Shown: piece after piece, positions 12,868 through 57,093 of the stretch | How positions within the stretch are numbered: the stretch's first letter is position 1 | Layout: every line of letters starts with the position of its first letter | Source: Gammaproteobacteria bacterium | GTDB lineage: Bacteria > Pseudomonadota > Gammaproteobacteria > Pseudomonadales > Azotimanducaceae | Assembly (NCBI GenBank): GCA_002726655.1 | Contig: PBRP01000034.1 | Span: forward strand, 19,087-83,086 | DNA length: 64,000 bases | Direction of reading: 5' to 3' | Notes under the pieces: model-generated | What the model saw: only the letters and a program-made list of their open reading frames with translations | What the model was told of the DNA's origin: nothing | Database searches by the model: none | Made by a program: the position numbers and the translations under genes

Positions 12868-14403
12868 CTACCAGCGCCCATTCCCAGGGCGCATCATGCC
12901 TGGATCGAGCAGGATTGGGTACGTATCGCGGATCTTGCGATCCGTCTCTGAGTCTATCAGGTCAGGGTAGTGGGTACTGAGTAGCGCCTTTACTCGTTTG
13001 CCTGACTGCTGGCGAATATCAAGTGACCCGGCTGTTTCCCAGTCTTCAGGTGGACTTCGATCAGAAATTGCCGGGTACTCAAACGCCGACCGCATGAGCT
13101 CCAGTGTCTGGGGGTGACGCAGATAGTGACCATCCCCATGCACAACATCTGCTATGACATCAAGGGAAAGGGTTGAATCATCTACCTCAATTCCTCGCAC
13201 CGTGCGTAATATCGCACCAAGCATGTCGTTGTCTATTACCAGGGCTTCGAATGACAATGCCATCAGACCACCAACCATACCGGCAGATTCAGATACATTG
13301 TTACAACCTGCCTGTGAAGCCAGAGCAACGCTTATGCCCTTTTCAAACCCCGCCTGATTATCTGGAATCTTCGCATCGGTCATGCCCGCACCAATAGAAC
13401 TAACGAGGCCATAGTGATTTATCATCTGAGCCGCAGCCGCACTCACCAGTGCTTCCTCGCCACTACCCCCGGTAAAGGCTCCGGTACGCAGGTCTGTCAC
13501 AAAAGGCCAGGCTCCAACAATGACAGGATAGCCAGGTGACACCATGTCAACCAGCAACAGGCCGGCAAGGGCCTCAGCAACACATTGAACCAGAGCACCC
13601 GCAAGTGCCGCAGGTGCCGTTGCTCCAGCCTGTGGAGCGACTACGATCCATACGGGGGCCCCGAACTTAACCGACTCAACGCAGACTTCACTGTTGTCCC
13701 TGGCGTAGCGCAAGGGTGAAACGATCGGGCATCCACCACCATGGCAAAAGGGCCGGTCAAACCAGCGCTTTTCACTGCCAGCAATAGTTTTCAACATCTC
13801 CAGCGTCGGGTCTATGTGAGAGGCATTATTGAACGTCAAGGCAGTGTGTTTGGCCGTACCCGCCACACTGGCATAGGCCGTATTAATGTCACAGGCAAGT
13901 TGATCCTGAATTTCTGTGGCAACAATCAATCGGGAAAATGCGTGTATGTTATCGAGCCTGTCGATCAGCCTTGCCGCATCGTAGATGTCCAGTAGTGTTG
14001 AAGGCCGATAGATTTGTGAATCAGGGTCCAGCATGTTTACCGCTTCGCCGCCACCGTATGTATGCACGCTCTGGCCGCCCAATTTCAAATCATGTTGAGG
14101 CGTACGCCCGAAAAACTGCATTTCCTTGGGCGTATTGGCAATAACGTCTTCAACCAACGCCCGCGGAAAACAAAGCCGGCCATGTTCATTCATCCAGGCT
14201 CCGCGATTTACGGCTTTCTCCTGGAGAATAGGTATGGGATCTCCCATGCCAATGACCTCAAGTACTTCCAGCACCGCCTGGTTAATTCGTTCCAGATCCA
14301 GTTCGCCAAGCGGACGGTAATCGCCACCGCGCATACCGGCTGTAACGACTGCCCCGGATGGCTTTTTTTCCTGACTTCTTTTTCTACCTCGGCGCAAGGT
14401 CAT
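12868..14403 (-). CDS. MttB-superfamily (non-pyrrolysine) quaternary-amine:corrinoid methyltransferase, paralogue 1
   Basis: Uninterrupted ORF with no in-frame TAG, ending in the family-typical ...MRPGNGRW. Shares GGCPIVSPLR, APQAGATAPAALAG and FTGGSGEEAL blocks with paralogue 2. Start chosen at the internal Met (MTLRRGRKRS...); the ORF-track start is 14457. Confidence 0.85.
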   Translation of the reverse strand: MTLRRGRKRSQEKKPSGAVVTAGMRGGDYRPLGELDLERINQAVLEVLEVIGMGDPIPILQEKAVNRGAWMNEHGRLCFPRALVEDVIANTPKEMQFFGRTPQHDLKLGGQSVHTYGGGEAVNMLDPDSQIYRPSTLLDIYDAARLIDRLDNIHAFSRLIVATEIQDQLACDINTAYASVAGTAKHTALTFNNASHIDPTLEMLKTIAGSEKRWFDRPFCHGGGCPIVSPLRYARDNSEVCVESVKFGAPVWIVVAPQAGATAPAALAGALVQCVAEALAGLLLVDMVSPGYPVIVGAWPFVTDLRTGAFTGGSGEEALVSAAAAQMINHYGLVSSIGAGMTDAKIPDNQAGFEKGISVALASQAGCNNVSESAGMVGGLMALSFEALVIDNDMLGAILRTVRGIEVDDSTLSLDVIADVVHGDGHYLRHPQTLELMRSAFEYPAISDRSPPEDWETAGSLDIRQQSGKRVKALLSTHYPDLIDSETDRKIRDTYPILLDPGMMRPGNGRW

Positions 14404-14715
14404 CACCTCATTAGGGTCTAGCCGACTGCTGAAAAGCAGACTGTTAGACCGATACATGAATGTATCGGCCGCAAATCAACGAAGTAAGTTGTTGATTTAT
14501 CGCGAGCGGGCTGAGGCCCGCGACCCTGAAAAAGTGCAGGAAAGCACTATTTTAGCAACCCGTTATAGGTACTGACCATCGTTATAGTACATCTTCCCAC
14601 ACAAGAAGACCTTCATGTAGAATCCCAACCAATCCAGACTCTGCAGCACAAACCAATATGGCAACAGGGATCACTAACAAGGTTGGATATCCAACAAAGG
14701 GCATATCGCTTCACT

Positions 14716-16302
14716 ATGACTGAGTCACACAGCACTCGCCGGGACAGAAAACGCACAAAGCGTTCGGGTGGCCGCTCGGCACGCAGGAAGATCCGCAGCA
14801 ATACAAATGCCGCTAATGCCGTCAGGGCCGGTATGCCGGGAGGACAGTATCGACCTTTAACTGATAATGATATCAAGCGTATCTATGACACCGCACTCAA
14901 GATCCTGGAAGACATAGGCATTGGCGATCCGATTCCCGAAATCCTTCACTATGCCCTGCCCAAGGGCTGCACTCTGGACACCGACAACAGGTTGCGCTTC
15001 CCGCGCAGCCTGGTAGAAGATCTTATCGATGTTTCTGCCAAGGAATACGTGCTCCATTCTCAGGATCCTGTAAATGATCTTACGGTACGCGGCACTGATG
15101 TTCTTTTTGGCTCATCGGGTGAAGCCGTTTCTATACTTGATTATGAATCCCAGCGTTTCAGGCCAACACGCCTGGTCGATCTATACGATGCGAGCCGGCT
15201 GGCCGATCAACTAGAACACATTCACACCTTCGGTCAACCATTTATCGCGGCTGAATACAGTGGAAATGTCTATGTCCATAACATTAACATTGCCTACGCA
15301 CAGCTAGCCGGGACGCGGAAATCTTTCGCGCTTGGCATTGCTGAAGTCGACCATATAGAGACGTTGATCGCACTTTTTGACACTTATCTCGGCGAAGAGG
15401 GTGCTTTCTTAAAACGACCTTTTTGTACCTTTGGCGGATGCCCGATCGTATCACCACTGCGATTCGGTAAAGACAATGCCGAGGTACTGGTCAAGGTTGC
15501 GGAACTGGGTTTACACGTAGATGTGGCGGTCGCTCCCCAGGCAGGAGCGACTTCTCCTGCCGCATTGGCGGGAACCCTGGCGCAGTGCTTTGCTGAAACG
15601 CTTGCCTGTATGTGCGTGGTAAATCTGGTTCGACCCGGTACCGCCATCAATTTTGGTATGTGGCCCTTCATCTCAGATCTGCGTACCGGCGCCTTTACGG
15701 GTGGCAGCGGCGAGGAGGCGCTCGTCATGGCCGCGACAACACAACTCTGTAACCACTTCGGCTTTATTACCAGTGTCGGTGCAGGAATGACCGACTCAAA
15801 AACCATGGACGTTCAGGCTGGATACGAAAAGGCTCTGACCACAGTCACCGCGGCGCTCGCTGGATGCAATCTGATTGCAGCCTACCCTGGTATTGTAGGT
15901 AGCCTGATTGGCCAATCGTTTGAGGGCATGGTGATTGACAATGACATGATAGGTAACATACAGCGTATATTGAGAGGAATAGAGGTAACTGAAGAAACCC
16001 TGTCCTATGACGTGATCAAACAGACAGTTACAGGCGCCGGCCACTTTCTTGGAAGTCAGCAGACCCTTGAACTGATGGAGACAGAATACCTATACCCCAG
16101 CGTCGCTGACAGACTTGCTCCCGCGGCCTGGGAAGAACTGGGAAGTAAAACCCTATATGAAAAGGCTCATGATCGAGTAGGAAACATGCTAAATGACTAC
16201 TACCCACAGTACATCGACCCAAAAGTAGACGCCCGTATTCGTGAGAACTTTCCGATAAAACTAGATCCGATTGATATGAGACGCGGGAATGGGAGATGGT
16301 AA
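14716..16302 (+). CDS. MttB-superfamily (non-pyrrolysine) methyltransferase, paralogue 2
   Basis: Same blocks as paralogue 1 (GGCPIVSPLR, APQAGATSPAALAG, FTGGSGEEAL, ...RRGNGRW). Arg-rich N-terminal leader. Start at the internal Met 14716; the ORF-track start is 14683. Confidence 0.85.
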   Translation: MTESHSTRRDRKRTKRSGGRSARRKIRSNTNAANAVRAGMPGGQYRPLTDNDIKRIYDTALKILEDIGIGDPIPEILHYALPKGCTLDTDNRLRFPRSLVEDLIDVSAKEYVLHSQDPVNDLTVRGTDVLFGSSGEAVSILDYESQRFRPTRLVDLYDASRLADQLEHIHTFGQPFIAAEYSGNVYVHNINIAYAQLAGTRKSFALGIAEVDHIETLIALFDTYLGEEGAFLKRPFCTFGGCPIVSPLRFGKDNAEVLVKVAELGLHVDVAVAPQAGATSPAALAGTLAQCFAETLACMCVVNLVRPGTAINFGMWPFISDLRTGAFTGGSGEEALVMAATTQLCNHFGFITSVGAGMTDSKTMDVQAGYEKALTTVTAALAGCNLIAAYPGIVGSLIGQSFEGMVIDNDMIGNIQRILRGIEVTEETLSYDVIKQTVTGAGHFLGSQQTLELMETEYLYPSVADRLAPAAWEELGSKTLYEKAHDRVGNMLNDYYPQYIDPKVDARIRENFPIKLDPIDMRRGNGRW

Positions 16303-16383
16303 TCCCGGCTTGGATCCGAGCTAAGTTCTTGCTATTTTGAAACATCCTCGCGACTAACGAAGCAGTGGAATAGGAATAGGAAT

Positions 16384-17088
16384 ATGTCACAAGACAATGA
16401 AGAGCAGGACGAAGAGATCATTCTATCGGAGCTCAATGATGAAGAGCTGGTGGAACAGATATTCGACGATCTATACGATGGCCTTGCGGAGGAAATCGCT
16501 GAGGCGACTCAAATACTGCTTGACCGCGGATGGTCAGCCAAAAAGGTACTTGATGACGCGCTTGTCGGCGGCATGAATATCGTGGGTGTGGATTTTCGGG
16601 ACGGGATTCTGTTCGTACCGGAAGTCCTGCTATCGGCAAACGCCATGAAAGCCGGGATGAGCATTCTAAAGCCGATTCTTGCAGCGGCTGGTGCCAAGCC
16701 AGTGGGAAAGATGGTCATCGGTACTGTTAAGGGAGATATCCATGATATCGGCAAAAACCTGGTGGGTATGATGATGGAAGGCGCCGGGTTTGAAGTCATT
16801 GATATTGGTATTAACACGGACGTCGAAACCTACATCGAAACCCTTAACAGGGAGAATCCGGATATTCTAGGTATGTCAGCACTTCTGACCACAACCATGC
16901 CCTATATGAAAGTCGTCATCGACAGAATGCAGGAGCGCAATATTCGCGATAACTATATCGTCATGGTTGGCGGTGCTCCGCTAAACGAGGAGTTCGCCAA
17001 CGCGATGGGGGCTGATGCCTATTGCCGCGATGCAGCCACCGCTGTTGAGATAGCTAAAGATCTGGTGCAGAAACGACGTGCTGGCTGA
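16384..17088 (+). CDS. Corrinoid (cobalamin-binding) methyl-carrier protein
   Basis: 234 aa. Has the B12-binding DxHxxG motif (GDIHDIGKNLV), then SALLTTTMP and GGAPLN as in MtbC/MtgC/MetH cap plus Rossmann domains. The N-terminal roughly 40 aa are unusually acidic. Confidence 0.88.
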   Translation: MSQDNEEQDEEIILSELNDEELVEQIFDDLYDGLAEEIAEATQILLDRGWSAKKVLDDALVGGMNIVGVDFRDGILFVPEVLLSANAMKAGMSILKPILAAAGAKPVGKMVIGTVKGDIHDIGKNLVGMMMEGAGFEVIDIGINTDVETYIETLNRENPDILGMSALLTTTMPYMKVVIDRMQERNIRDNYIVMVGGAPLNEEFANAMGADAYCRDAATAVEIAKDLVQKRRAG

Positions 17089-17109
17089 ACCGGTCTTCAC
17101 AGTTTCCCA

Positions 17110-17721
17110 GTGAACAATTCTTCACCCCGTATATTGCTGATAGGGTGCGGTGCTATCGCCCAGGAACTGCTTGATTTGCAGCGTTGCAACGGCTGGGCAC
17201 ACATCAAATTGCAGTGTCTGCCAGCAGGATTGCACAATACACCGGAGAAAATACCCGACGCGGTTGGCGCGCTGGTTGAAAAGTGGCAAAGCCATTATGA
17301 ACAGATCCTGGTCGCCTACGCCGATTGTGGTACCGGCGGCCTGCTTGATGCCAAACTTGATGAATACGGTATTGAACGCCTGCCAGGAGCCCACTGTTAT
17401 GAGTTTTTTTCAGGCTCGGAAGTGTTCGACGGATTCTTAACTGAGGAAATAGGCACCTACTACCTAACAGATTTTCTCGTGCGCCATTTTGACCGGCTTA
17501 TCAAGGCAGGTCTGGGTCTGGATGTTCACCCTGAATTATTGCCTGTATATTTCAGCAACTACAAGCGGGTAATGTACCTGGCGCAGACACGTTCGCAAAA
17601 TCTATCACTGCTGGCCCGCGAACATGCCGAATATCTTGGACTTGACTACTGTGAGCACTATACGGGTCTCGCACCTTTGGGCAGGGCACTGACAGCAGAG
17701 TCAATTCTTGTGCAAAGCTAG
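17110..17721 (+). CDS. DUF1638 domain protein
   Basis: 203 aa, GTG start. The pattern ILLIGCGAI...CLPAGLHNTPEKI...ADCGTGG...YYLTDFL is what I recall for DUF1638, a family commonly embedded in corrinoid methyltransferase clusters. Confidence 0.6.
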   Translation: MNNSSPRILLIGCGAIAQELLDLQRCNGWAHIKLQCLPAGLHNTPEKIPDAVGALVEKWQSHYEQILVAYADCGTGGLLDAKLDEYGIERLPGAHCYEFFSGSEVFDGFLTEEIGTYYLTDFLVRHFDRLIKAGLGLDVHPELLPVYFSNYKRVMYLAQTRSQNLSLLAREHAEYLGLDYCEHYTGLAPLGRALTAESILVQS

Positions 17722-17780
17722 CGGCCATTTCCAATGAGCGCTGGCGATTTCCACCTTGAAGTACTCAGAAGGAATTCAGG

Positions 17781-18686
17781 ATGACTGACACGGTAATCAG
17801 TTCCGCAAAGAAAGAGGTAGTTATTGGCTTCGAGCAGCCCTTCGTTGTAATTGGAGAGCGAATTAATCCAACAGGACGGAAAATGCTGTCAGAAGAAATG
17901 AAGCTTGGCGACTATTCCCGTGTACAGACTGATGCTATAGCTCAGATCGAGGCGGGCGCTCAAGTACTGGACGTTAATGCCGGCATACCTCTGGCGGATG
18001 AACCGACAATACTGGCAGACTGTATCAAGCTCTTGCAGTCAATTAGCGATGTGCCCCTGTGTATCGATTCATCAATGGTCGAAGCTCTTGAAGCAGGGCT
18101 TGCGGTTTATCAGGGCAAGGCTCTCCTAAATTCGGTTACGGGTGAAGATGAGGTCCTGGAGCGGATATTGCCACTGGTTAAGAAATACGGATGTGCAGTC
18201 GTTGCCATCTGCAATGACGACACCGGCATATCAGAAGATATTGAGGTTCACTTTCAGGTTGCCAGGAAAATCATCGAGCGGGCATCGGACCATGGGATTG
18301 CCAGCAGTGATATTGTAGTCGATCCCCTGGTGATGCCCGTCGGTGCCATAGGTACCGCAGGCAGACAGGCAATGGCACTGGTAGAGCGATTAAGGTCCGA
18401 GTTGGGTGTTAACACCACTTGTGGGGCTTCAAATCTGAGTTTCGGCTTACCCAACCGCTCTGGTCTCAACGCTGCATTCATCAGTATGATAATGGGAAGC
18501 GGTATGACATCGGCTATTACCAACCCGCTAAAACCAGACCTGATGCAGGCAGTTAGAGGTGCTGATGTCGTGATGGGTCATGACTCTGAATGTGCCGCCT
18601 GGATTGAGTCGTATCGAGATCGCTCAGAAGGAGCAGCAGTGAAGCGGGGTAGGCGCGGTGGTCGACGCGCTCGCAGGGCCAAATAA
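17781..18686 (+). CDS. Methyltetrahydrofolate:corrinoid methyltransferase (pterin-binding, MtgA/AcsE/MtrH-like)
   Basis: 301 aa. Has a pterin-binding TIM-barrel pattern (IGERINPTGRK, LDVNAG, CIDSS, LNSVTGE, GASNLSFGLPNR). Arg-rich C-terminal tail. Confidence 0.82.
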   Translation: MTDTVISSAKKEVVIGFEQPFVVIGERINPTGRKMLSEEMKLGDYSRVQTDAIAQIEAGAQVLDVNAGIPLADEPTILADCIKLLQSISDVPLCIDSSMVEALEAGLAVYQGKALLNSVTGEDEVLERILPLVKKYGCAVVAICNDDTGISEDIEVHFQVARKIIERASDHGIASSDIVVDPLVMPVGAIGTAGRQAMALVERLRSELGVNTTCGASNLSFGLPNRSGLNAAFISMIMGSGMTSAITNPLKPDLMQAVRGADVVMGHDSECAAWIESYRDRSEGAAVKRGRRGGRRARRAK

Positions 18687-18719
18687 CCGACATAACTACC
18701 CAGGGGTGAATTGAGAATC

Positions 18720-20720
18720 ATGCCTACCGGCAAGGACCCGAAGATCATTTTTTCACCATCCGGCAAACGCGGACAATTTCCTGCTGGTACAAGCCTGTTG
18801 CAGGCAGCTCGCAAGCTGGGTGTCGACATTGATTCCGTTTGCGGCGGGCGAGGAACCTGTGGCCGTTGTCAGGTAACCGTCTCTGAGGGAGAGTTTTCAA
18901 AACATGGTATCGTTTCGAATACGGCACACCTATCGGATCAGAATGAAGCAGAATCCCGCAGCCGCGATAAACGAAAGCTAAGAGAAGGTCATCGCCTGAG
19001 CTGTCAAACCCAATTGCTCGGCGACATCGCCATTGACGTGCCGAGTACTAGCCAGATCCATCGCCAGCTTGTATGCAAAGACCACGAAGCCCGCGCGATT
19101 AGTATTAATCCCTCGGTACATGCCTTTTTCGTTGAAGTAGCCAGGCCAAGTTTGACAGACCCCACCGGTGACCTCGAACGGCTGATGGCAGCACTTGAGA
19201 AGGATTGGCAGCTTAGCAACCTGGTGTGTGACCTCGCCATAACACGTTCTTTGCCGGAAGTACTCAGGACCGCGAACTGGCAAGTCACAGTCGCAGTAAG
19301 AGGTTCAACTGAGATTGTTGCCGTCTCTGCAGGGTTGAAAGAATCTCTCTATGGTGTCGCTATTGACGTTGGCTCTACTACAATTGCGGCGCACCTCTGC
19401 GACCTGAGCAGTGGAGAAGTACTAGCTAGCGCTGGCCGCATGAATCCACAGATTCGGTATGGAGAGGATCTGATGAGCCGGGTTTCCTACATCATGTTAA
19501 ATTCGGGTGGGGAGGCTGAACTGATCAAGGCTGTGCGGGGGGCGATCTCAGAACTCCTGATCGAAACGACTGCCAAGGCCAGGTTGCGCCCGCTGGATAT
19601 CGTCGAAATAGTTATTGTCGGCAACCCAATCATGCAGCACCTGGTACTTGGCCTAAACCCAATTCATCTCGGTACCGCCCCCTTCACCCTGACAAGCGAC
19701 GCAGCCACCAGTGTCCGGGCACGTGATATTGGTATTGATATCAGCCCGGGAGGATATGCCTATGTTCTACCCTGTATAGCCGGCCATGTCGGTGCTGATG
19801 CGGCAGCGGTGTTACTCGCGGAAGCGCCCTATGATCGTGACGAAATTTCCCTGCTCATTGACGTCGGTACCAACGCTGAAATATTTCTCGGAAACCGTGA
19901 TCGCATACTTGCGGCATCCAGTCCCACAGGGCCAGCATTCGAGGGGGCACAGATCAGCTCTGGCCAAAGAGCGGCGCCCGGCGCGGTGGAAAGAGTTCGT
20001 ATTGACCACGACACGCTTGAACCCAGATTCAAGGTCGTAGGTTGTGACGTCTGGTCTGATGACGCTGCTTTTAACGATCAATTGCCTGTCACGGGTGTCA
20101 GCGGAATATGTGGTTCCGGAATAATTGAGGCAGTAGCGGAATTGTTTCTCGCAGGAGTAGTTAATGCTGAAGGAGTTATTACACCCGAAGCAGCAGCACG
20201 CTCGAAACGTATTGTCAGGCAGGAGCGAACATTCACCTACATCCTGGTTGAGGGTGAACCCGGTGTTCGCATCGAGCAAAACGATATCCGCGCAATCCAA
20301 CTGGCAAAGGCTGCTCTCTATGCAGGGGTTCGTTTGCTTATGGACAAGTTGGGCGTAACACGAGTGCAGCGGATACGACTTGCTGGAGCATTTGGTGCAA
20401 ATATCGATGTTAAGTACGCAATGATACTGGGTATGATTCCAGACTGTGACTTGTCGAATGTTTCTTCTGCCGGCAATGCTGCCGGGACCGGAGCGCGTAT
20501 CGCACTTCTAGATAGGCATGCCAGACAGCTCATAGAACAGCAGGTAAGGGCCATTGAAAAAATTGAAACTGCAGCAGAGGATAGCTTCCAGGATCACTAT
20601 GTTTCGGCCATGGGTATTCCACACCAGTTCGACCCGTTTACCGAGTTGCGCAAGCTTGTCGAAGTACCAATCACTAAACCGGCAACGACCGGTAGACGCC
20701 GAAGAAAACGAACTAGGTAG
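18720..20720 (+). CDS. RamA/ASKHA-type corrinoid reductive activase with N-terminal 2Fe-2S ferredoxin domain
   Basis: Plant-type ferredoxin motif CGGRGTCGRCQV...C near the N-terminus, followed by a large ASKHA (sugar-kinase/actin-like) domain (AIDVGSTTIAAH, LIDVGTNAEI, ICGSGIIEA). Arg-rich C-terminal tail. The ORF-track TTG start is at 18711. Confidence 0.82.
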   Translation: MPTGKDPKIIFSPSGKRGQFPAGTSLLQAARKLGVDIDSVCGGRGTCGRCQVTVSEGEFSKHGIVSNTAHLSDQNEAESRSRDKRKLREGHRLSCQTQLLGDIAIDVPSTSQIHRQLVCKDHEARAISINPSVHAFFVEVARPSLTDPTGDLERLMAALEKDWQLSNLVCDLAITRSLPEVLRTANWQVTVAVRGSTEIVAVSAGLKESLYGVAIDVGSTTIAAHLCDLSSGEVLASAGRMNPQIRYGEDLMSRVSYIMLNSGGEAELIKAVRGAISELLIETTAKARLRPLDIVEIVIVGNPIMQHLVLGLNPIHLGTAPFTLTSDAATSVRARDIGIDISPGGYAYVLPCIAGHVGADAAAVLLAEAPYDRDEISLLIDVGTNAEIFLGNRDRILAASSPTGPAFEGAQISSGQRAAPGAVERVRIDHDTLEPRFKVVGCDVWSDDAAFNDQLPVTGVSGICGSGIIEAVAELFLAGVVNAEGVITPEAAARSKRIVRQERTFTYILVEGEPGVRIEQNDIRAIQLAKAALYAGVRLLMDKLGVTRVQRIRLAGAFGANIDVKYAMILGMIPDCDLSNVSSAGNAAGTGARIALLDRHARQLIEQQVRAIEKIETAAEDSFQDHYVSAMGIPHQFDPFTELRKLVEVPITKPATTGRRRRKRTR

Positions 20721-20755
20721 GGTGCGCTGGATTACTAAATTGCACGGGAATCAAT

Positions 20756-22270
20756 ATGGCCAGAAGAAGTCATCGTAAGAAACGCGATGCTAATGCTATC
20801 CGGCAGCTTCCATTCAACAACGTCACAAATCCATACCCACCAATGGAAGTGCTTAATGATAGTCAGGTTCAGAAGATAGTCACCACTGCTCTGACAGTGC
20901 TGGAGTCTCACGGCATGCGCTTCATGCATGATGAAAGTCGACGCCTGCTGAGACAGGCTGGAGCCAACGTGGATGACTCGCAACAGATGGTGCGAATTGA
21001 TCGTGATCTTGTCTTGGAGAAAATTGCACAGGCCCCATCAGAATTCACACTAAGCGCCCGAAACCCCGATCATGATCTGAAGATCGGCGCGAACAACATC
21101 GTCTTTACATCTGTTGGCGGGCCAGCATTTTGCACCGACCTCGACCAGGGTCGGCGTCCGGGTACCTATGAAAACATGTGCGACTATCTGAAGCTGGTCC
21201 AGAGTTTGAATATCGTTCACCAGGAAGGGGGCGGTGCCTTTGAAGCAATGGACCTGCCACCGGAATCACGACACCTTGACCTCTACCTCGCTCAATCGAC
21301 TCTGCTCGACAAGAATGCGCAAGCCTACGCCCTGGGCCGAACGCGTACCATTGACTGCATCGAGATGACCTGTATTGCCCATGGAATTGATCGGACCGAG
21401 CTAGAAAAAAGGCCATACATACTTGCGATAATCAACACCAACTCCCCGCGACAGCTAGACGTTCCAATGTCAGAGGCTGTTATCGAACTGGCTTTAGCTG
21501 GGCAGGTTAGTTGTATTACACCCTTTACTATGGCCGGGTTTATGAGTCCAGTCACCCTTGCCGGTACCCTGGTACAGCAAACTGCCGAAATTCTGGCTGT
21601 GGCAACCCTCGCACAGGCAGTTAGGCCAGGCGCCCCAGTGATATATGGATCCTTTGCCTCAAATATCGACATGCAAACCGGAGCGCCTGCACTCGGAACG
21701 CCTGAATACACAAAAATGTCTTTCGCAAGCTGCCAGATAGCCCGCTGTCTGGGACTGCCCAGCAGATCCAGCAATACAACGACGTCAAACTGTGCTGATG
21801 CACAATCTGCATATGAAAGTGAGATGTCACTATGGGGATCTGTAATGGGTCACGCAAACCTTGTCAATCATGCGGCCGGCTGGCTGGAGAGCGGCTTAAC
21901 AGCATCGTTTGAAAAATTGATGCTTGATGCTGAGATGCTGCAAATGATGGCAGAGACACTGAAGGCTATAGAAGTCAGCGATGAGGAGTTGGCACTAGAC
22001 GCAATCTCGAACGTTGAGCCCGGAGGTCATCACTTCATGACTGAACACACCCTCGCGCGTTACGAAACTGCCTTTTATCCGAGTATGCTCTCAACCCGTC
22101 AGAATTTTGAAACCTGGAGTGAGCAAGGCCAACAGGATGCAACCATGAGAGCCAACACCATGTGGAAACAACTACTAAATGAATATGAGCGCCCTGCCAT
22201 TGAGCCCGATAAGGAGGAAGCCCTTAAGGACTATGTTGCGAGACGCAAGCGAGAAATTGCAACGCCTTGA
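20756..22270 (+). CDS. MttB-superfamily (non-pyrrolysine) methyltransferase, paralogue 3
   Basis: 504 aa with no in-frame stop. More diverged, but keeps family architecture (..INTNSPRQLD.., ITPFTMAGFMSPVTLAGTLVQQTAE.., GAPALGTPE..). Basic N-terminus MARRSHRKKRD. Confidence 0.78.
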   Translation: MARRSHRKKRDANAIRQLPFNNVTNPYPPMEVLNDSQVQKIVTTALTVLESHGMRFMHDESRRLLRQAGANVDDSQQMVRIDRDLVLEKIAQAPSEFTLSARNPDHDLKIGANNIVFTSVGGPAFCTDLDQGRRPGTYENMCDYLKLVQSLNIVHQEGGGAFEAMDLPPESRHLDLYLAQSTLLDKNAQAYALGRTRTIDCIEMTCIAHGIDRTELEKRPYILAIINTNSPRQLDVPMSEAVIELALAGQVSCITPFTMAGFMSPVTLAGTLVQQTAEILAVATLAQAVRPGAPVIYGSFASNIDMQTGAPALGTPEYTKMSFASCQIARCLGLPSRSSNTTTSNCADAQSAYESEMSLWGSVMGHANLVNHAAGWLESGLTASFEKLMLDAEMLQMMAETLKAIEVSDEELALDAISNVEPGGHHFMTEHTLARYETAFYPSMLSTRQNFETWSEQGQQDATMRANTMWKQLLNEYERPAIEPDKEEALKDYVARRKREIATP

Positions 22271-22291
22271 GAAAGGAGCCGGACTGAACAC

Positions 22292-23818
22292 ATGCGACCA
22301 ACATTAACCACGCTTGACGACCAACTCAAGGACCGGATTCTGACTGAAGCAAAGCGCCTGATGGCCGAAGTGGGAATGGAAATTCGCGGTGAGCCCCTGA
22401 AGCAGAGACTGCTGGATCATGGACTGAAATCAGACGCCGCTGGTACTCGCATTTTCTTCCCACAGGATGTGGTTGAAAAAGCCATTGCTGACGCACCGGG
22501 TTCATTTTCTCTTTTTGATCGGGACGGTGAATTTCACACTGAAATTGGTGGTAACAATGTACACTTCGTTCCCGGCTCGAGTGGGCTCAAGATCCTCGAT
22601 CACAGGAGCGGACAATGCCGCCTGGCCAATTCACATGATTATGTCGAGTATGTACGCCTGTGCGACGGGCTTGAACACATTGCCTACCTGGCAACCGCGT
22701 TTTCTACTAACCAGGACATAGAGTCGCAGGTATCCGATGCCTGGCGCCTCTATATGACACTGACTAACTCGAAGAAACCCATAGTATCGGGTGCTTTCAG
22801 TGAAAATGGTGTGCCTCGGATGGTAGAGATGATGCAGATGTTCCGCCAGAGCCGCGCAGATCTCATCGCTAAACCCATGTCAATTTTCACCATTACCGCG
22901 ACTGGGAACTTCCGTTACGGCGAAGATTCATGCCAGAACCTGCTTGATTGCGTCGAAGCCGGAATCCCTGTGGAAATTGTACCGGTAACCTTGATGGGGC
23001 TTATTGCACCAGTAACCCTGGTGGGAGCCCTGGTGTTTCATTGTGTTGACGTTCTCACCGGCATAACAATGGCGCAAATTGTCAGACCCGGCGCAGCGGT
23101 GCTTTTTGGTGGTGCACCGGCAACCTTTCATATGAAGGCGGCAAGTTCACCCATGGCCGCCATTGAGGCACAACATCTCAATGTGGCTTACGTGGAAATC
23201 GCCAAGTCTCTCAGTTTACCTACCCAGGCCTACATGGCGTTAAGTGATGCTAAGTCTCTTGATGCCCAGGCTGGTGCCGAGACTTTCAGCAGTGCTCTGG
23301 TGGCGGCAATAGCCGGTGTCAATTCGATCTCCGGTCCGGGCATGCTGGATTTTGTCCTGACGTTCAGCCTGCCCAAGCTCATCTTTGACAATGACCTCTG
23401 TGGTCAGGCTTTGCATTTTGTACGTGAAATCAAGGTGCTTGAAGACCTGCCCTCAGATGACCTGGTCAAAGAACTCCTGCAGGAAGATCACCTGCTCACT
23501 TCGCCACATACCTTGAAAAACTGGCCCCAGGAGCTTTATCTTACTGACTCCGTTATCGACCGCTTCAGCCGCGAAAAATGGCTGGAAGAAGGCGCTAGAG
23601 AACTCCATGAACGCGCCGGTGAGGAAGTAGACCGCAGGCTAAGCGCCTATACCCCGATTGCTACCGATGCCCAGATTGATCAAGCCATGAAAGACCTTGT
23701 TACCTCAGGATTCAAGACCCAGACAGACCTGCCTGAACTGCCTCCATTGCCCGCGTCGCCAGGGACAGCGCCAGCGTCAGGTCGTCGAGGTCGAGCCCGA
23801 CGTCGCCGCAAGCGCTAA
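22292..23818 (+). CDS. MttB-superfamily (non-pyrrolysine) methyltransferase, paralogue 4
   Basis: 508 aa. AAGGAG Shine-Dalgarno upstream. Family blocks present ([27 protein letters not shown]). Has a proline-rich linker and then an Arg-rich C-terminal tail. Confidence 0.75.
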
Positions 23819-23965: not shown

Positions 23966-24697
23966 ATGGAATTTACAATTTCTGCGCGCAGTAAACCTGC
24001 AGCACAACCAATACAGCAATTGATCAAGAAAAATTTCAGCCAGATCCCGATTGATCAGATTGAAAGTTTCTTTGGTTTCACCGAACCATGTACTCTCTAC
24101 GGGGGCAGGGTCTTTGGCCAGACCGAACTCAGTCGGTATGACCTGCGCTCAATGTACAAGATGAATATCAACTACAGGATACCCCTGACGAATCATTATG
24201 CGACGGAAGACGAATACAAGGCTTGTCTGCCATTCCTGGAAAAACACTATCGACCCGGCAACTCGGTGATTATCACCAACGACGACCTGGCGACCTGGAT
24301 CAGAGCAGATTTTCCAGACTATCGGGTCGAGGCAAGTGTGATTAAGAACATCAACACCCTGCCCAAGGTTATGCAGGCCTATGAACTTTACGATACGGTC
24401 ATTCTGCCAATGGATGCCAATGAGGATGAGGAGTTTCTTCTGTCCATTCCAGAAAAGGAACGTATCATGCTATTTGCAAACGCGGGATGTGCAATGACCT
24501 GCCCGGCAAAGATCTGCTATACGAGTGTCTCAAAGGCCAATAAGGAAGGTGACAAGAGTTTGTGGCAATGTTCTCAATCCATCAAACCCAGAGATATTCT
24601 GGGTATGATGGATTTTGATCTTGATCATCTCCAAGACCTGGGTTTTCACCGTTTCAAACTCTTGCGATCAAGACCAGGCCAGCTGACTGGCTTCTAA
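23966..24697 (+). CDS. Uncharacterised protein, possible short divergent U32-like (TrhP/UbiV-type) Fe-S protein
   Basis: 243 aa, AGGGAG upstream. By-eye alignment of residues around 105-190 to the TrhP core encoded next door (see findings). Cys pattern C-x3-C-x4-C plus distal Cys residues. Confidence 0.55.
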   Translation: MEFTISARSKPAAQPIQQLIKKNFSQIPIDQIESFFGFTEPCTLYGGRVFGQTELSRYDLRSMYKMNINYRIPLTNHYATEDEYKACLPFLEKHYRPGNSVIITNDDLATWIRADFPDYRVEASVIKNINTLPKVMQAYELYDTVILPMDANEDEEFLLSIPEKERIMLFANAGCAMTCPAKICYTSVSKANKEGDKSLWQCSQSIKPRDILGMMDFDLDHLQDLGFHRFKLLRSRPGQLTGF

Positions 24698-25001: not shown

Positions 25002-26306
25002 CTAATTCTCATCTCGCACCAGCAAGCCATATTCCAGTTGCTCCACTGACAGTTTCACTGGTTTTCTTATCTGAACCAGATGCCCTGAACCGGGTGCTAC
25101 GTCTATTGCATGACCGTCCTTATTTTCCAGGGTTGTAAGCTCAAAATTGAGATTCCCGGATGGTGTCATCAGTTGCAGGGTCTCATCTTTTTCAAATCGA
25201 TTCTTTACATCGATGGTCAGCCAATCTTCGTTCGCATCAATCACCTCGCCCACAAATCGCTGCGGCCCCGTGGGCTGCTTCTGGTTATCGTATCCTTGAT
25301 ACTCGGCCGGTGGGTGGCGGCGATAAAAGCCTTCTGTGTAGCCCCTGTTCGCCAGAGTCTGCAGGTCGTCCATCATCTGCATATCGAAGTCTTTCCCCTG
25401 CACGGCCTCCTCTATGGCTCGACGGTACACCTGTGCGGTTCGCGCTACATAGTAGTGTGATTTGGTTCGGCCCTCGATTTTCAGTGTACGAATACCCATT
25501 TCACAGAACCGTGCAACATGCTGAACCGCGCGTAGATCCTTTGAATTCATAATGTAGGTACCAAATTCATCTTCATAGGCAGGCATGTACTCTCCAGGCC
25601 TTCCCTCTTCCTGAAGCAAGAATGCCGGTTCTTTTTCCCTTTCGACGGCCTTCAGTGGCAGAAGCTCACCCGTTTCGTTTTCAGTTGCCTCGTGAGCCTG
25701 GTACTTCCACCGGCACGAATTCGTGCAGGCTCCCTGGTTTGAATCCCTGTGAGTCATATAGCCCGAAAGCAAACACCGGCCAGAGTATGCAATGCATAGT
25801 GCGCCGTGAACAAACACCTCAAGTTCCATGTCCGGCACTTTCTGACGAATATCCTCAATTTCTTCGAGGGACAGCTCCCGTGACAATATCACCCGGGTTA
25901 GCCCCTGTTGCTGCCAGAACCTCACCGTCGCCCAGTTTACGGCGTTGGACTGGACTGATAGATGAATAGCCATATCAGGAAACTTCTCTCGAACCAGCAT
26001 AATCAGACCGGGATCAGACATGATTAGGGCATCCGGCTGCATCTCAATGACCGGCTCCAGGTCCTTCAGGTAACTCTTAACCTTGTCATTGTGAGGAGAA
26101 ATATTGGAAGCGACATAAAACTGTTTCGCTGCTCGATGGGCTTCATCGATTGCCCCTGCAAGTATTTCAGTTTCCTTGAACTGATTATTTCGCACACGAA
26201 GGCTGTAACGAGGCTGACCAGCGTAAACGGCATCCGAACCATAGGCAAAAGCATAGCGCATATGCTTGACGGTTCCGGCCGGGGACAGCAACTCAGGTTT
26301 TTGCAT
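25002..26306 (-). CDS. trhP: U32-family tRNA uridine(34) hydroxylase (prephenate-dependent), YegQ/TrhP type
   Basis: 434 aa. Near-collinear with E. coli YegQ as I recall it: KPELLSPAGT.K.MRYAFAYG.DAVYAGQPRYSLRVRNN, FVHGALC.AYSGRCLLSGY, YIMNSKDLRA, LKIEGRTKS.YY.ARTAQVYR.AI. Confidence 0.85.
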   Translation of the reverse strand: MQKPELLSPAGTVKHMRYAFAYGSDAVYAGQPRYSLRVRNNQFKETEILAGAIDEAHRAAKQFYVASNISPHNDKVKSYLKDLEPVIEMQPDALIMSDPGLIMLVREKFPDMAIHLSVQSNAVNWATVRFWQQQGLTRVILSRELSLEEIEDIRQKVPDMELEVFVHGALCIAYSGRCLLSGYMTHRDSNQGACTNSCRWKYQAHEATENETGELLPLKAVEREKEPAFLLQEEGRPGEYMPAYEDEFGTYIMNSKDLRAVQHVARFCEMGIRTLKIEGRTKSHYYVARTAQVYRRAIEEAVQGKDFDMQMMDDLQTLANRGYTEGFYRRHPPAEYQGYDNQKQPTGPQRFVGEVIDANEDWLTIDVKNRFEKDETLQLMTPSGNLNFELTTLENKDGHAIDVAPGSGHLVQIRKPVKLSVEQLEYGLLVRDEN

Positions 26307-54827: not shown

Positions 54828-55931
54828 ATGAAGTTTTCAATAAATCGTGAAGCGCTACTCGAGCCCTTGCAGGTCGTCACTAATGTTGTAGAGCGCAGGC
54901 AGACCCTGCCGATATTGTCTAATTTGCTGATTGCCATTGAAGACAATACCCTAAGTATGACCGGTACCGATCAGGAAGTAGAATTGATCGCACGTACTGA
55001 TGCTTTCAGTAGTGATGAAGTTGGTGAAATTACTGTACCCGCAAGGAAGTTGTTGGACATTTGCAAAAGTTTACCGCAAGCCGCCATTGTCGATTGCTCG
55101 CTAAAGGAAGGCCGGCTGGCGATAAAGAGTGGAACCTTTAAGTCGCAGCTAGCCACCCTGCCTGTGGTGGATTTCCCGAATGTCGAAATGGACTCATATG
55201 ATGTCACTTTTGTACTAGCCGCCGGTGTATTGCAGCAACTATTGGATAAGACCAGTTTTGCGCTGGCTCAACAGGATGTTCGTTACTTTTTCAATGGTTT
55301 GTTACTTGAAGCGGAAGGCAGCCTGGTGAGGTTCGTTGCAACCAATGGCCAGCGACTGGCCACCAGCTATGTTGATGAGGTTGAGACTGGATCAAGTCAG
55401 CAGTTCATTGTTCCCCGCAAGGGAGTGAATGAACTCTCAAGACTAGTTCAGGATGGCGGCGATCAGGAAGTGAAGATGAGCTTTTCCAGCAATCATATGC
55501 AGGTTCATTGTGCGCAGGCCACTTTAACAAGCAAGTTGATAGATGCCACCTATCCCGATTACACCCGGGCGATTCCAGAAGGGGGAGACAAGATACTGGT
55601 GGGTGACCGCTTACTAATAAAGGAAGCACTTAGCCGAACAGCAATTCTTTCAAATGAGTTGTATCGGAATGTCAGGCTATTACTAGAACCTGGAAAACTT
55701 GGGATGCATGCAAATAACCCCATGCTGGAGGAGGCCGAAGAAACTGTTACCGTCGACTATAGTGGATTGCCATTGGAAATAGGCTTTAATGTTGGCTATC
55801 TCATCGAGACCTTGACGGTCATGCAAGGAGAAAAGGTGCGCATGGAGTTAACGGATGCGAATAGCGCTTGTTTATTGACAGACCCTGATGATATAAACTC
55901 TCGCTATGTTATCAGCCCAATGATGCTATAG
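54828..55931 (+). CDS. DNA polymerase III beta sliding clamp, divergent upstream paralogue
   Basis: 367 aa, full length with three clamp domains. The N-terminus MKFSINREALLEPLQVVTNVVERRQTLPILSNLL and the blocks QQDVRYFFNGLL, FIVPRKGV, TSKLID..YPDY and ANNP..EEAEE are clamp-like. Several otherwise invariant gammaproteobacterial positions differ (see findings). Confidence 0.85.
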   Translation: MKFSINREALLEPLQVVTNVVERRQTLPILSNLLIAIEDNTLSMTGTDQEVELIARTDAFSSDEVGEITVPARKLLDICKSLPQAAIVDCSLKEGRLAIKSGTFKSQLATLPVVDFPNVEMDSYDVTFVLAAGVLQQLLDKTSFALAQQDVRYFFNGLLLEAEGSLVRFVATNGQRLATSYVDEVETGSSQQFIVPRKGVNELSRLVQDGGDQEVKMSFSSNHMQVHCAQATLTSKLIDATYPDYTRAIPEGGDKILVGDRLLIKEALSRTAILSNELYRNVRLLLEPGKLGMHANNPMLEEAEETVTVDYSGLPLEIGFNVGYLIETLTVMQGEKVRMELTDANSACLLTDPDDINSRYVISPMML

Positions 55932-55992: not shown

Positions 55993-57093
55993 ATGAAATT
56001 TTCAATTAATCGAGAAGTCCTTTTGCGACCTTTACAGCAGGTAGCTGGTGTCGTAGAGCGTCGACAGACGCTTCCAGTGCTGGCGAATGTGCTGATGCAG
56101 GTAACTGAAAATCAGCTGTCGATGACCGGTACGGATCTGGAAGTCGAGCTGGTGGGCAGGGTGGAGTTAGAGGGAGCCAGCGCCGGTGAAATTACCGTGC
56201 CAGCAAGAAAGCTGGTGGATATTTGTCGAGAAATTCCCGAAAAAGCTGAAATAGAGTTTGGGCTCAACGATCAGAGGCTGGAGATCAAGTCCGGCAGATT
56301 CCGATCAAACCTGTCAACTTTACCCGCAGATGATTTTCCTGCGGTCGACAGTACTGCTTCTGAAATGTCGTCGACGGTAGAGAGCAAAGCCTTCAAGAAA
56401 TTACTGGATAGCACCGGTTTTGCCATGGCTCAGCAGGATGTCCGTTATTTTCTGAATGGCATGCTAATAGAGATTGGTAGTGGCCGTATAAGATCTGTAT
56501 CAACCGATGGTCATCGCTTGGCTATGGGGAATCTAACGGTAAAAACTGAGAACGATGAAATGCGGCAAGTCATTGTGCCGAGAAAAGGGATTGTGGAAAT
56601 ACAGCGCTTGTTGAATGAACTGGAGGGGGATGTAGAAATTTCTCTGGGTGCCGGTCATGTCTGTGTTTCATCCAGGGATTACACCTTGACCTCGAAACTG
56701 GTAGATGGTCGATTCCCAGAATACGAGAGGGTGATTCCAAGGAATGGTGACAAGATCATTTTTGCGGACAGGGTTGAATTGCGCCAGGCTCTCAATCGTA
56801 CAGCAATACTCTCAAACGAAAAATTCCGCGGTATCAGGGTAATACTCAGTAAAGGATCTATCCAGTTGTCTGCTAATAACCCGGAGCAGGAGGAAGCAGA
56901 GGAGACGGTATCGGTAGAATATGACGGAGAGGGCATCGAAATAGGCTTCAACGTCAGCTATCTGCAGGATGTGTTGGGTGTTTTGGAGAGTGATAAAGTC
57001 AAGCTGACTCTTCATGATGGGAACAGCAGCGCGCTCCTCGAAGACCCTGATAATGAAGATACCCTTTACGTGGTTATGCCAATGAAGTTATGA
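55993..57093 (+). CDS. dnaN: DNA polymerase III beta sliding clamp (canonical-looking copy)
   Basis: 366 aa. Closely resembles Pseudomonas/E. coli DnaN as I recall them (GTDLEVELVGRV, STDGHRLAM, SKLVDGRFPEYERVIP, ILSNEKFRGIR, ANNPEQEEAEE, GFNVSYLQDVLGV, YVVMPMKL). ATGA overlap with recF. Confidence 0.95.
   Translation: MKFSINREVLLRPLQQVAGVVERRQTLPVLANVLMQVTENQLSMTGTDLEVELVGRVELEGASAGEITVPARKLVDICREIPEKAEIEFGLNDQRLEIKSGRFRSNLSTLPADDFPAVDSTASEMSSTVESKAFKKLLDSTGFAMAQQDVRYFLNGMLIEIGSGRIRSVSTDGHRLAMGNLTVKTENDEMRQVIVPRKGIVEIQRLLNELEGDVEISLGAGHVCVSSRDYTLTSKLVDGRFPEYERVIPRNGDKIIFADRVELRQALNRTAILSNEKFRGIRVILSKGSIQLSANNPEQEEAEETVSVEYDGEGIEIGFNVSYLQDVLGVLESDKVKLTLHDGNSSALLEDPDNEDTLYVVMPMKL

Follow-up and report, generated by a model that had tools for sequence, protein, structure and literature searches.

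A cluster of eight genes at positions 12868-23818 of a 64,000-nucleotide stretch of gammaproteobacterial DNA (Azotimanducaceae; contig PBRP01000034.1; the whole stretch is referred to below as the window) encodes an MtgC-type corrinoid (B12) shuttle protein, the enzymes that use it, and a set of oppositely charged protein termini: every catalytic partner of the shuttle carries a short Arg-rich tail, and the shuttle itself opens with an acidic head. The cluster comprises four PF06253 MttB-family methyltransferases, the corrinoid protein, a DUF1638 protein, a pterin-binding methyltransferase (MtgD-like) and a RACo/RamA-like activase. These domain assignments had been proposed in an initial annotation made from the sequence, and Pfam bears them out. 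The pattern of tails and head recurs in related genomes from several phyla and is absent from the anaerobe-type relatives of the system. We favor, with modest confidence and on the strength of sequence comparison, an electrostatic leash as its explanation, in which the Arg tails would bind the acidic head and cap domain of MtgC and thereby hold a multi-part enzyme together.

Within the window, a terminus was scored as basic when any 12-residue stretch at it contained at least six Lys or Arg (K/R) residues. By this measure, all six corrinoid-using partner enzymes have a basic terminus, compared with 3 of the 45 other open reading frames (ORFs; Fisher p = 4.7e-6), the three being an ORF with a signal-peptide-like N-terminus, GlmU and AtpC. 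All termini quoted in the initial annotation were present in the translations. MttB-1 (12868-14403, minus strand; PF06253, E = 6e-98), an MtgB-like methyltransferase of the non-pyrrolysine (non-Pyl) MttB family, has the basic N-leader MTLRRGRKRSQEKKPSGAVVTAG, encoded at ~14335-14403; its translation from the Met at 14403 opens MTLRRGRKRSQEKK, and the leader is kept in the related loci L161, L165, L166 and L167. MttB-2 (14716-16302, plus strand; PF06253) opens MTESHSTRRDRKRTKRSGGRSARRKIRS from the Met at 14716 and has 12 K/R in 22 residues of its leader (~14716-14832). An alternative TTG start lies at 14683, and the orthologues of MttB-2 in relatives are 527-528 amino acids (aa) long in public gene calls, leader included. 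MttB-3 (20756-22270, plus strand; Pfam E = 9e-182, match from residue 3), the paralog nearest to the MtgB-type proteins common in other phyla, has the leader MARRSHRKKRDANAIR (~20756-20839). The fourth paralog, MttB-4 (22292-23818, plus strand; Pfam match to residues 3-470, from profile position 29), has no N-leader region and carries in its place a 38-residue basic C-terminal add-on (~23702-23815), which is kept in L166, L161, L165 and L073.

The two remaining partners have their tails at the C-terminus. The MtgD-like methyl-tetrahydrofolate (methyl-H4folate):corrinoid methyltransferase (17781-18686, plus strand; PF00809; 351 bits to NF005719, cut-off 259) has an Arg tail at residues 280-301 (~18618-18683), ending in KRGRRGGRRARRAK, and the RamA/RACo-like reductive activase (18711-20720, plus strand; a 2Fe-2S domain and an ASKHA ATPase; Pfam Fer2, RACo_linker, Raco_middle and RACo_C_ter) has an add-on at residues 640-669 (~20628-20717) whose last letters are TGRRRRKRTR. 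The shuttle, MtgC (16384-17088, plus strand; 234 aa; Pfam B12-binding_2, the cap, and B12-binding), contains 17 Asp or Glu (D/E) but not a single K/R among its first 40 residues, and none of the other window ORFs has a comparably acidic N-terminus. Its acidic head spans residues 1-22 (16384-16449) and continues into an acidic cap helix 1 (to ~16500). The DUF1638 protein (17110-17721, plus strand; PF07796) carries no charged extension of either kind, as had been noted from the sequence, and none of its 71 homologs has a basic C-terminus (at least five K/R in 12 residues).

Occurrence of the tails was then assessed in a genome scan with one genome per species, which yielded 80 loci with an MtgC-type corrinoid protein 69-78% identical to that of the window. 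These in-group loci came from Alpha-, Beta- and Gammaproteobacteria, Acidimicrobiia, Thermoleophilia, Actinomycetes and Chloroflexota. In this survey, a C-terminal tail was defined as at least five K/R in 12 residues, and a strong tail as at least six. A C-terminal Arg tail was present on 88% of 42 MtgD homologs and 90% of 39 RamA homologs, compared with 7% of background ORFs by the same measure, and the MtgD and RamA homologs under the five-residue threshold were still Arg-rich or were frameshifted. Among the 120 closest MtgD homologs, an RGRRxGRRRR-like tail is present without exception. MttB3-like proteins have a GGRRxRGGxAARRA-type leader upstream of the conserved core in 34 of 34 cases. 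If tails mark the enzymes that dock on MtgC, the homocysteine methyltransferase MtgE, which is not encoded in the window, is expected to carry one as well, and a C-terminal Arg tail (e.g., SRRGRRGRRRA) was found in all 33 in-group cases. The statement that every catalytic partner of the shuttle has a basic tail was thus correct for the window, and the pattern recurs in the 80 species-level genomes.

Other proteins of the same clusters do not share this feature. Besides DUF1638, no Arg tail was detected on MTHFR (6 loci) or on a small PF13769 protein (39 loci). Cluster proteins involved in neither methyl transfer nor repair have no tail, and the tails are specific to the partners. The tails of these unrelated partners have a Gly/Arg motif in common, RGRRxGRRRR in MtgD, RRGRRGRRRA in MtgE and GGRRxRGG in the MttB leader, and this motif is also found on MttB-4; Arg is strongly preferred over Lys (in-group loci L001-L080, proteins P0271-P0390). 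In addition, the MttB4 type has lost the N-leader region and has its tail at the C-terminus, implying that it is immaterial which end of the protein carries it.

We assessed translation of the leaders and tails by comparing 144 leader and tail codons of the window with those of a syntenic sister contig, L166. Differences at codon positions 1, 2 and 3 numbered 23, 14 and 62, respectively, and 51 synonymous codon changes were observed against 29 non-synonymous ones. This coding pattern and synonymous excess indicate that leaders and tails are translated and under purifying selection, in agreement with the earlier assumption that the N-terminal leaders are part of the proteins. Ribosome-binding sites upstream of the leader starts were ambiguous and do not fix these starts. 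Basic leaders are sometimes trimmed from annotations: the same MttB-1 ortholog, whose leader opens at a TTG codon in L166 and L167, appears in public gene calls as a 488-aa protein without the leader (L166, 6613-8079) and as a 509-aa protein with it (L167, 6613-8142). In distant relatives the sequence of the tails drifts and their composition stays, as seen for the MtgD tail, which is KRGRRGGRRARRAK in the window and PRGRRGGRRGRKRRE or RRGRRGGRRRRNRG elsewhere; in these comparisons selection acts on tail composition and not on sequence.

The acidic counterpart is equally persistent. All 120 closest MtgC homologs (at least 79% identical) keep the acidic head, with 14-18 D/E and 0-2 K/R in 40 residues and a semi-conserved pattern, [DE]n-I-[IV]-L-[SA]-[ED]-L-x-D-[DE]-E-L-x-x-Q-[MV]-x-DDLYDG. 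In each of the 76 genome loci scored, the head is 21-35 residues long with a net charge of −6 to −14. The head had been described as a charged extension, and this description holds for all 76 loci; however, the acidity reaches beyond the head into the aligned region of MtgC, whose median net charge is −21 in the clade versus −7 in anaerobe-type relatives. Similarly, the cap helices have a net charge of −6 in the MtgC clade and −1 in the outgroup. The window MtgC has a net charge of −22 over its 234 aa, i.e., −9.3 per 100 aa compared with −3.6 for DUF1638 (net −10). The partner cores are all net negative as well (−4 to −17), and the tails, with a net charge between about +2 and +9 in their last 20 residues, are opposite in sign to the head and to MtgC. 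Several longer 'fusion' corrinoid proteins (P0001, P0128, P0132, P0133 and P0137) were rejected as natural fusions, being duplicated or frameshifted assemblies, and a headless, 55%-identical corrinoid protein (P0153) in an unrelated context of TPR and glycosyltransferase genes was set aside as uninformative.

An outgroup was obtained by a metagenome scan that took as its seed the closest corrinoid protein of known structure (1Y80 type) and gave ~75 anaerobe-type loci with corrinoid proteins 35-54% identical to the window MtgC. These proteins have no head and open with cap helix 1, the median number of residues ahead of it being 3, and at the threshold of at least six K/R in 12 residues no tail was found on any outgroup MT2, homocysteine methyltransferase, MttB or RACo scored for termini. 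Among solved structures, MtgB of D. hafniense and MttB of M. barkeri have no leader, and the corrinoid proteins 1Y80, 7XCN_M and 4JGI have no head. Head and tails were both present in 5 metagenome loci of the MtgC clade recovered by the same scan, as well as in two divergent lineages, L124 (61% identity) and L169 (58%); the 6.4-kb contig of L169 does not contain DUF1638. DUF1638 is nearly specific to the clade, with 72 of the 80 in-group loci having it compared with 2 distant outgroup copies. The co-occurrence of basic tails with an acidic N-terminal extension, which the initial annotation had singled out for comparative study, is therefore observed in the 80 genome loci, the 5 metagenome loci, L124 and L169, with both features absent from the ~75 anaerobe-type loci. 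At least five different proteins or termini acquired a tail.

Structural models place the tails outside the folded enzymes. In the AlphaFold2 (AF2) model of MtgD, the last helix of the triosephosphate isomerase (TIM) barrel runs to residue 278, and residues 280-301 have no secondary structure and a predicted local distance difference test (pLDDT) score of 36-41, so that the tail is predicted to be disordered. PDB homologs of MtgD end at query residues 280-284, and PDB 3zyy aligns to residues 10-639 only of the RamA-like activase. The MT2 and RACo homologs end where the window tails begin, so that the tails are add-ons beyond the folded cores. For MtgC, AF2 gives disorder at residues 1-10 (pLDDT 39), places residues 11-20 (EIILSELNDE) at pLDDT 87 and assigns residues 19-32 to cap helix 1.

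Two targeting functions were considered for the tails and rejected. A twin-arginine translocation (Tat) signal peptide was discarded because no hydrophobic stretch follows the leaders, which continue into polar or Gly-rich sequence instead, and because half of the tails are C-terminal. A peptide for targeting to a microcompartment or encapsulin was likewise discarded, the MtgD tail being predicted as coil (pLDDT 36-41) and not as an amphipathic helix. No shell or encapsulin genes were found among the listed window ORFs or the called genes of the related loci viewed.

The system to which these proteins belong has been described. In the split methionine synthase, a homocysteine methyltransferase, a pterin-binding protein and a B12 protein are separate, and a RamA-like protein and DUF1638 are genetically needed for B12 reactivation (Price et al. 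2018, PMC5764234); the genetic link of DUF1638 to B12 reactivation has also been reported elsewhere (PMC12478193). In Ruegeria pomeroyi, MtgC and MtgD serve two processes, methionine formation with MtgE and glycine betaine demethylation with the MttB-family protein MtgB (Mausz et al. 2025, PMC12478193). The window MtgC shares 69-78% identity with proteins from Ruegeria, Mesorhizobium, Rhizobium, Amphritea and numerous metagenome-assembled genomes, with DUF1638 adjacent; DUF1638 adjoins the corrinoid gene in 72 of the 80 in-group loci, and a gap in identity separates MtgC-type proteins (at least 69%) from all other corrinoid proteins (at most 59%). This identity and the adjacent DUF1638 identify the cluster, by homology, as a gammaproteobacterial member of the known MtgBCD(E) system, that is, an aerobic split methionine synthase and glycine-betaine demethylase (MtgB, MtgC, MtgD, RamA and DUF1638), here with four MttB paralogs. 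Scored against the anaerobe MtgC models NF047996 and NF047995, the window MtgC stays under both cut-offs. Assignment of the four MttBs to the Pyl-dependent trimethylamine methyltransferase (TIGR02369) was rejected on scores of 280-348 bits against an equivalog cut-off of 525. A tblastn search with the MtgE of L019 found no match to this PF02574 protein in the 64-kb window; mtgE may be located elsewhere in the genome, and many in-group loci show no linkage between it and the corrinoid gene.

Descriptions of the tails or of a charged head-tail pattern were not found in the full texts searched, among which coverage of subscription journals was thin, and a word search of PMC5764234, PMC12478193 and a 2025 MtgBCD preprint found no mention of it. 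Since these three texts do not mention the pattern, it represents an added observation on a known system, and we rate it as a new feature or variant of that system.

We propose that the tails and the head are two sides of one docking arrangement. MtgC carries a methyl group between separate enzymes, namely the four MttBs in this organism, MtgD and, elsewhere, MtgE, and is repaired by the RamA-like activase when its cobalt becomes oxidized. Each partner in this clade has gained a short Arg-rich segment on a flexible linker of 10-40 residues, at whichever terminus was free, and MtgC has turned strongly acidic, with an N-terminal head joined to an acidic cap domain. The cationic tails could then bind the anionic head and cap surface non-specifically, raising the local concentration of the shuttle around each partner. 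They would in this way stand in for the covalent linkers of classical MetH and counteract the repulsion of MtgC by enzyme cores that are likewise net-negative. The selection on these segments and the complementarity of their charges are features of the data; physical contact between tail and MtgC, and a kinetic benefit from it, are inferred. Moreover, as the acidity lies on the cap, and catalysis requires the cap to move off the corrin, binding of a tail may favor the open, cap-off state, a point that is speculative. A broader proposal combines these elements into a universal, sequence-tolerant docking code by which one B12 shuttle would be shared by an expandable set of methyltransferases and a repair enzyme, with acquisition of a tail as the means of entry, binding that pulls the cap off the corrin, and a non-covalent replacement for the domain linkers of MetH. 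We put this forward tentatively, as somewhat less probable than an even chance.

The initial annotation had proposed an electrostatic tethering module with fly-casting, and the proposal gains from the co-occurrence of tails and head, the specificity of the tails for partners and the presence of a tail on MtgE in all 33 cases. Several observations weigh against it in its simplest form. The covariation of tails and head across orthologous clusters that it implied is seen at the level of the clade; within the clade it is weak or not significant, with head and tail charge correlated for MtgD (Spearman rho −0.36, p = 0.03, a statistic that ignores phylogeny) and not significantly for RamA or MtgE. 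The co-occurrence at clade level itself amounts to little more than one evolutionary transition, and DUF1638 arrives together with that clade. The nearest outgroup MT2s have a short, mildly basic helix end (e.g., YIKAYRQRRTQ), and some anaerobe MttBs open with MARKRRG or MFRKRKAG. Outgroup loci with such mildly basic termini (L088, L097, L112, L126 and L110) have a corrinoid protein without the acidic head, and weak basic termini may be older than the head and may be the precursors of the tails. The Gly/Arg low-complexity character of the tails, with an RGRRxGRRRR-like motif on unrelated proteins, also resembles RGG-like segments that bind nucleic acids. Finally, in the AF2 model the notion of a disordered acidic head stands for residues 1-10 of MtgC and fails for residues 11-20, which are confidently placed. 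A partly ordered head makes fly-casting by the head less apt than disordered tails reaching for the acidic head and cap surface, and the acidic target may, according to the model, be a short floppy tip plus an ordered acidic cap surface rather than a flexible arm.

In a different explanation, the tails bind a cellular polyanion (RNA, DNA or the nucleoid, polyphosphate, or anionic membrane lipids) and the pathway is thereby co-localized, possibly in a condensate, with the acidity of MtgC being secondary. A Gly/Arg composition common among proteins that bind nucleic acids or polyanions, the predicted disorder of the tails and the oligomeric state of MttB-family enzymes in solved structures, which would provide multivalency (PMC9842639), agree with it. 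However, MtgC, the one component that all tailed enzymes must meet, lacks a basic tail and exceeds the other proteins of the set in acidity, so that it would be repelled from such a scaffold unless it bound the tails itself; the acidic head is found exactly in the tail-bearing lineages; and no other ORF in the window or in the locus flanks shares the tails beyond background. We consider this explanation unlikely. The tails could instead act within their own proteins, by neutralizing an acidic core or by affecting solubility, oligomerization, stability, proteolysis or expression, with no contact to MtgC. The net negative charge of all partner cores (−4 to −17), the stabilization of the M. barkeri MttB hexamer by N-terminal residues (PMC9842639) and the mildly basic termini of outgroup proteins whose loci have no acidic head are in line with such a role, which would nevertheless leave unexplained why the same composition occurs on four unrelated enzyme classes, and on MttBs at either terminus, only in the clade with the acidic shuttle, and why similarly acidic non-partner proteins of the same clusters have no tail. 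We regard an intramolecular function as distinctly unlikely.

Another candidate for the binding partner is a different clade-specific component, most plausibly DUF1638 (or the PF13769 protein), which would act as an assembly hub or repair platform and leave the MtgC head to some other purpose. DUF1638 is nearly confined to the clade (72 of 80 loci versus 2 distant outgroup copies), has no tail itself, has a net charge of −10 and is genetically required together with the RamA-like protein (PMC5764234). Its charge density of −3.6 per 100 aa, on the other hand, is similar to that of the enzymes and far from the −9.3 of MtgC, the lineage L169 combines head and tails although its 6.4-kb contig contains no DUF1638, and the PF13769 protein is absent from the window cluster, making a hub of this kind very unlikely. 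It is extremely improbable that tails and head have no function and are products of drift in composition or of faulty annotation (wrong start codons, or GC-rich spacers read as coding). Many in-group genomes are indeed GC-rich, which favors Arg codons, spurious high-GC ORFs are also Arg-rich at their ends, and the leader starts are not fixed by ribosome-binding sites. Yet the window keeps all tails at a GC content of ~50%, which rules out GC-driven enrichment of Arg, the codon-position pattern and synonymous excess are those of purifying selection, and the features are kept over five phyla and in all 120 closest homologs.

The electrostatic leash can be compared with several known systems. The aerobic MtgBCDE/split-MetH system shares with the window an MtgC-type protein, an adjacent DUF1638, MtgD, a RamA-like activase and PF06253 methyltransferases; the window cluster differs in having four MttB paralogs and no MtgE within the window. 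Classical MetH has the same four activities around one B12 domain with a four-helix cap, and its B12 and pterin modules are homologous to those of the window. However, MetH modules are covalently linked and include a dedicated reactivation domain, whereas the window modules are separate polypeptides in which the tails would take the role of linkers. The crystal structure of MttB-MttC shows contact mainly through the cap domain, with few direct contacts, and the MtaBC complex is anchored by an additional domain at the N-terminus of MtaC (PMC9842639). The MtaB-MtaC and MttB-MttC pairs of methanogens (PDB 2I2X and 7XCN) thus show a shuttle that docks by its cap, and the MtaC extension is a precedent for a partner-binding addition to the N-terminus. 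Unlike the acidic head, the MtaC extension is folded and specific for one partner, and corrinoid proteins of methanogens and anaerobes have no acidic head, nor their partners Arg tails.

Small, strongly acidic carriers or hubs that are recognized by many unrelated partners in a largely electrostatic, sequence-tolerant manner include the acyl carrier protein and the acidic C-terminal tip of the bacterial single-stranded DNA-binding protein. Their folded partners provide the basic element as a patch or pocket of the surface; in the window it would be a disordered terminal tail added to each partner.

Several neighboring genes were also analyzed. Roughly half of the related clusters (L161, 11325-11630; L165, 11300-11635; 39 of the loci L001-L080) encode a PF13769 ('Virulence_fact') protein of ~100-110 aa between the DUF1638 and MtgD genes; in the window, which lacks it, these two genes are separated only by a gap of 59 nucleotides (17722-17780). 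A 243-aa ORF at 23966-24697 travels with the cluster in relatives, at 5662-6393 in L161, beside MttB-1, and at 17638-18369 in L166. Pfam and NCBIfam scans of this ORF gave no match; it has several Cys residues, including a CAMTCPAKICY stretch, and may be a further component of the cluster. The U32-family protein at 25002-26306 (minus strand) was rejected as a peptidase or cluster member, being TrhP, the prephenate-dependent tRNA U34 hydroxylase (NF011996, 719 bits). The window adjoins the chromosomal replication origin, with dnaA, dnaN, recF, gyrB, the atp operon and glmUS, and has a GC content of ~50%. Two tandem dnaN (beta-clamp) paralogs, 50% identical over the full length, directly follow dnaA (54828-55931 and 55993-57093); it is unusual for an origin to carry two sliding clamp genes of this kind.

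Abundant among bacteria of soils and the sea, the MtgBCDE/split-MetH system ties together glycine-betaine turnover, methionine synthesis and B12 demand. Annotation pipelines should take account of trimmed MttB leaders, and the proposed role of the tails is directly testable in the existing genetic models Ruegeria pomeroyi and Phaeobacter inhibens. If it is correct, the tail would be a marker for new shuttle partners among neighboring enzymes, and the arrangement would offer a design rule for engineering modular B12 methyltransferases. A charge code of tails and head would, if true, be a simple physical answer to how one shuttle finds at least four enzymes at the low protein levels of aerobic oligotrophs, and such a docking code would explain the spread of the system across phyla and the diversification of its MttB paralogs.

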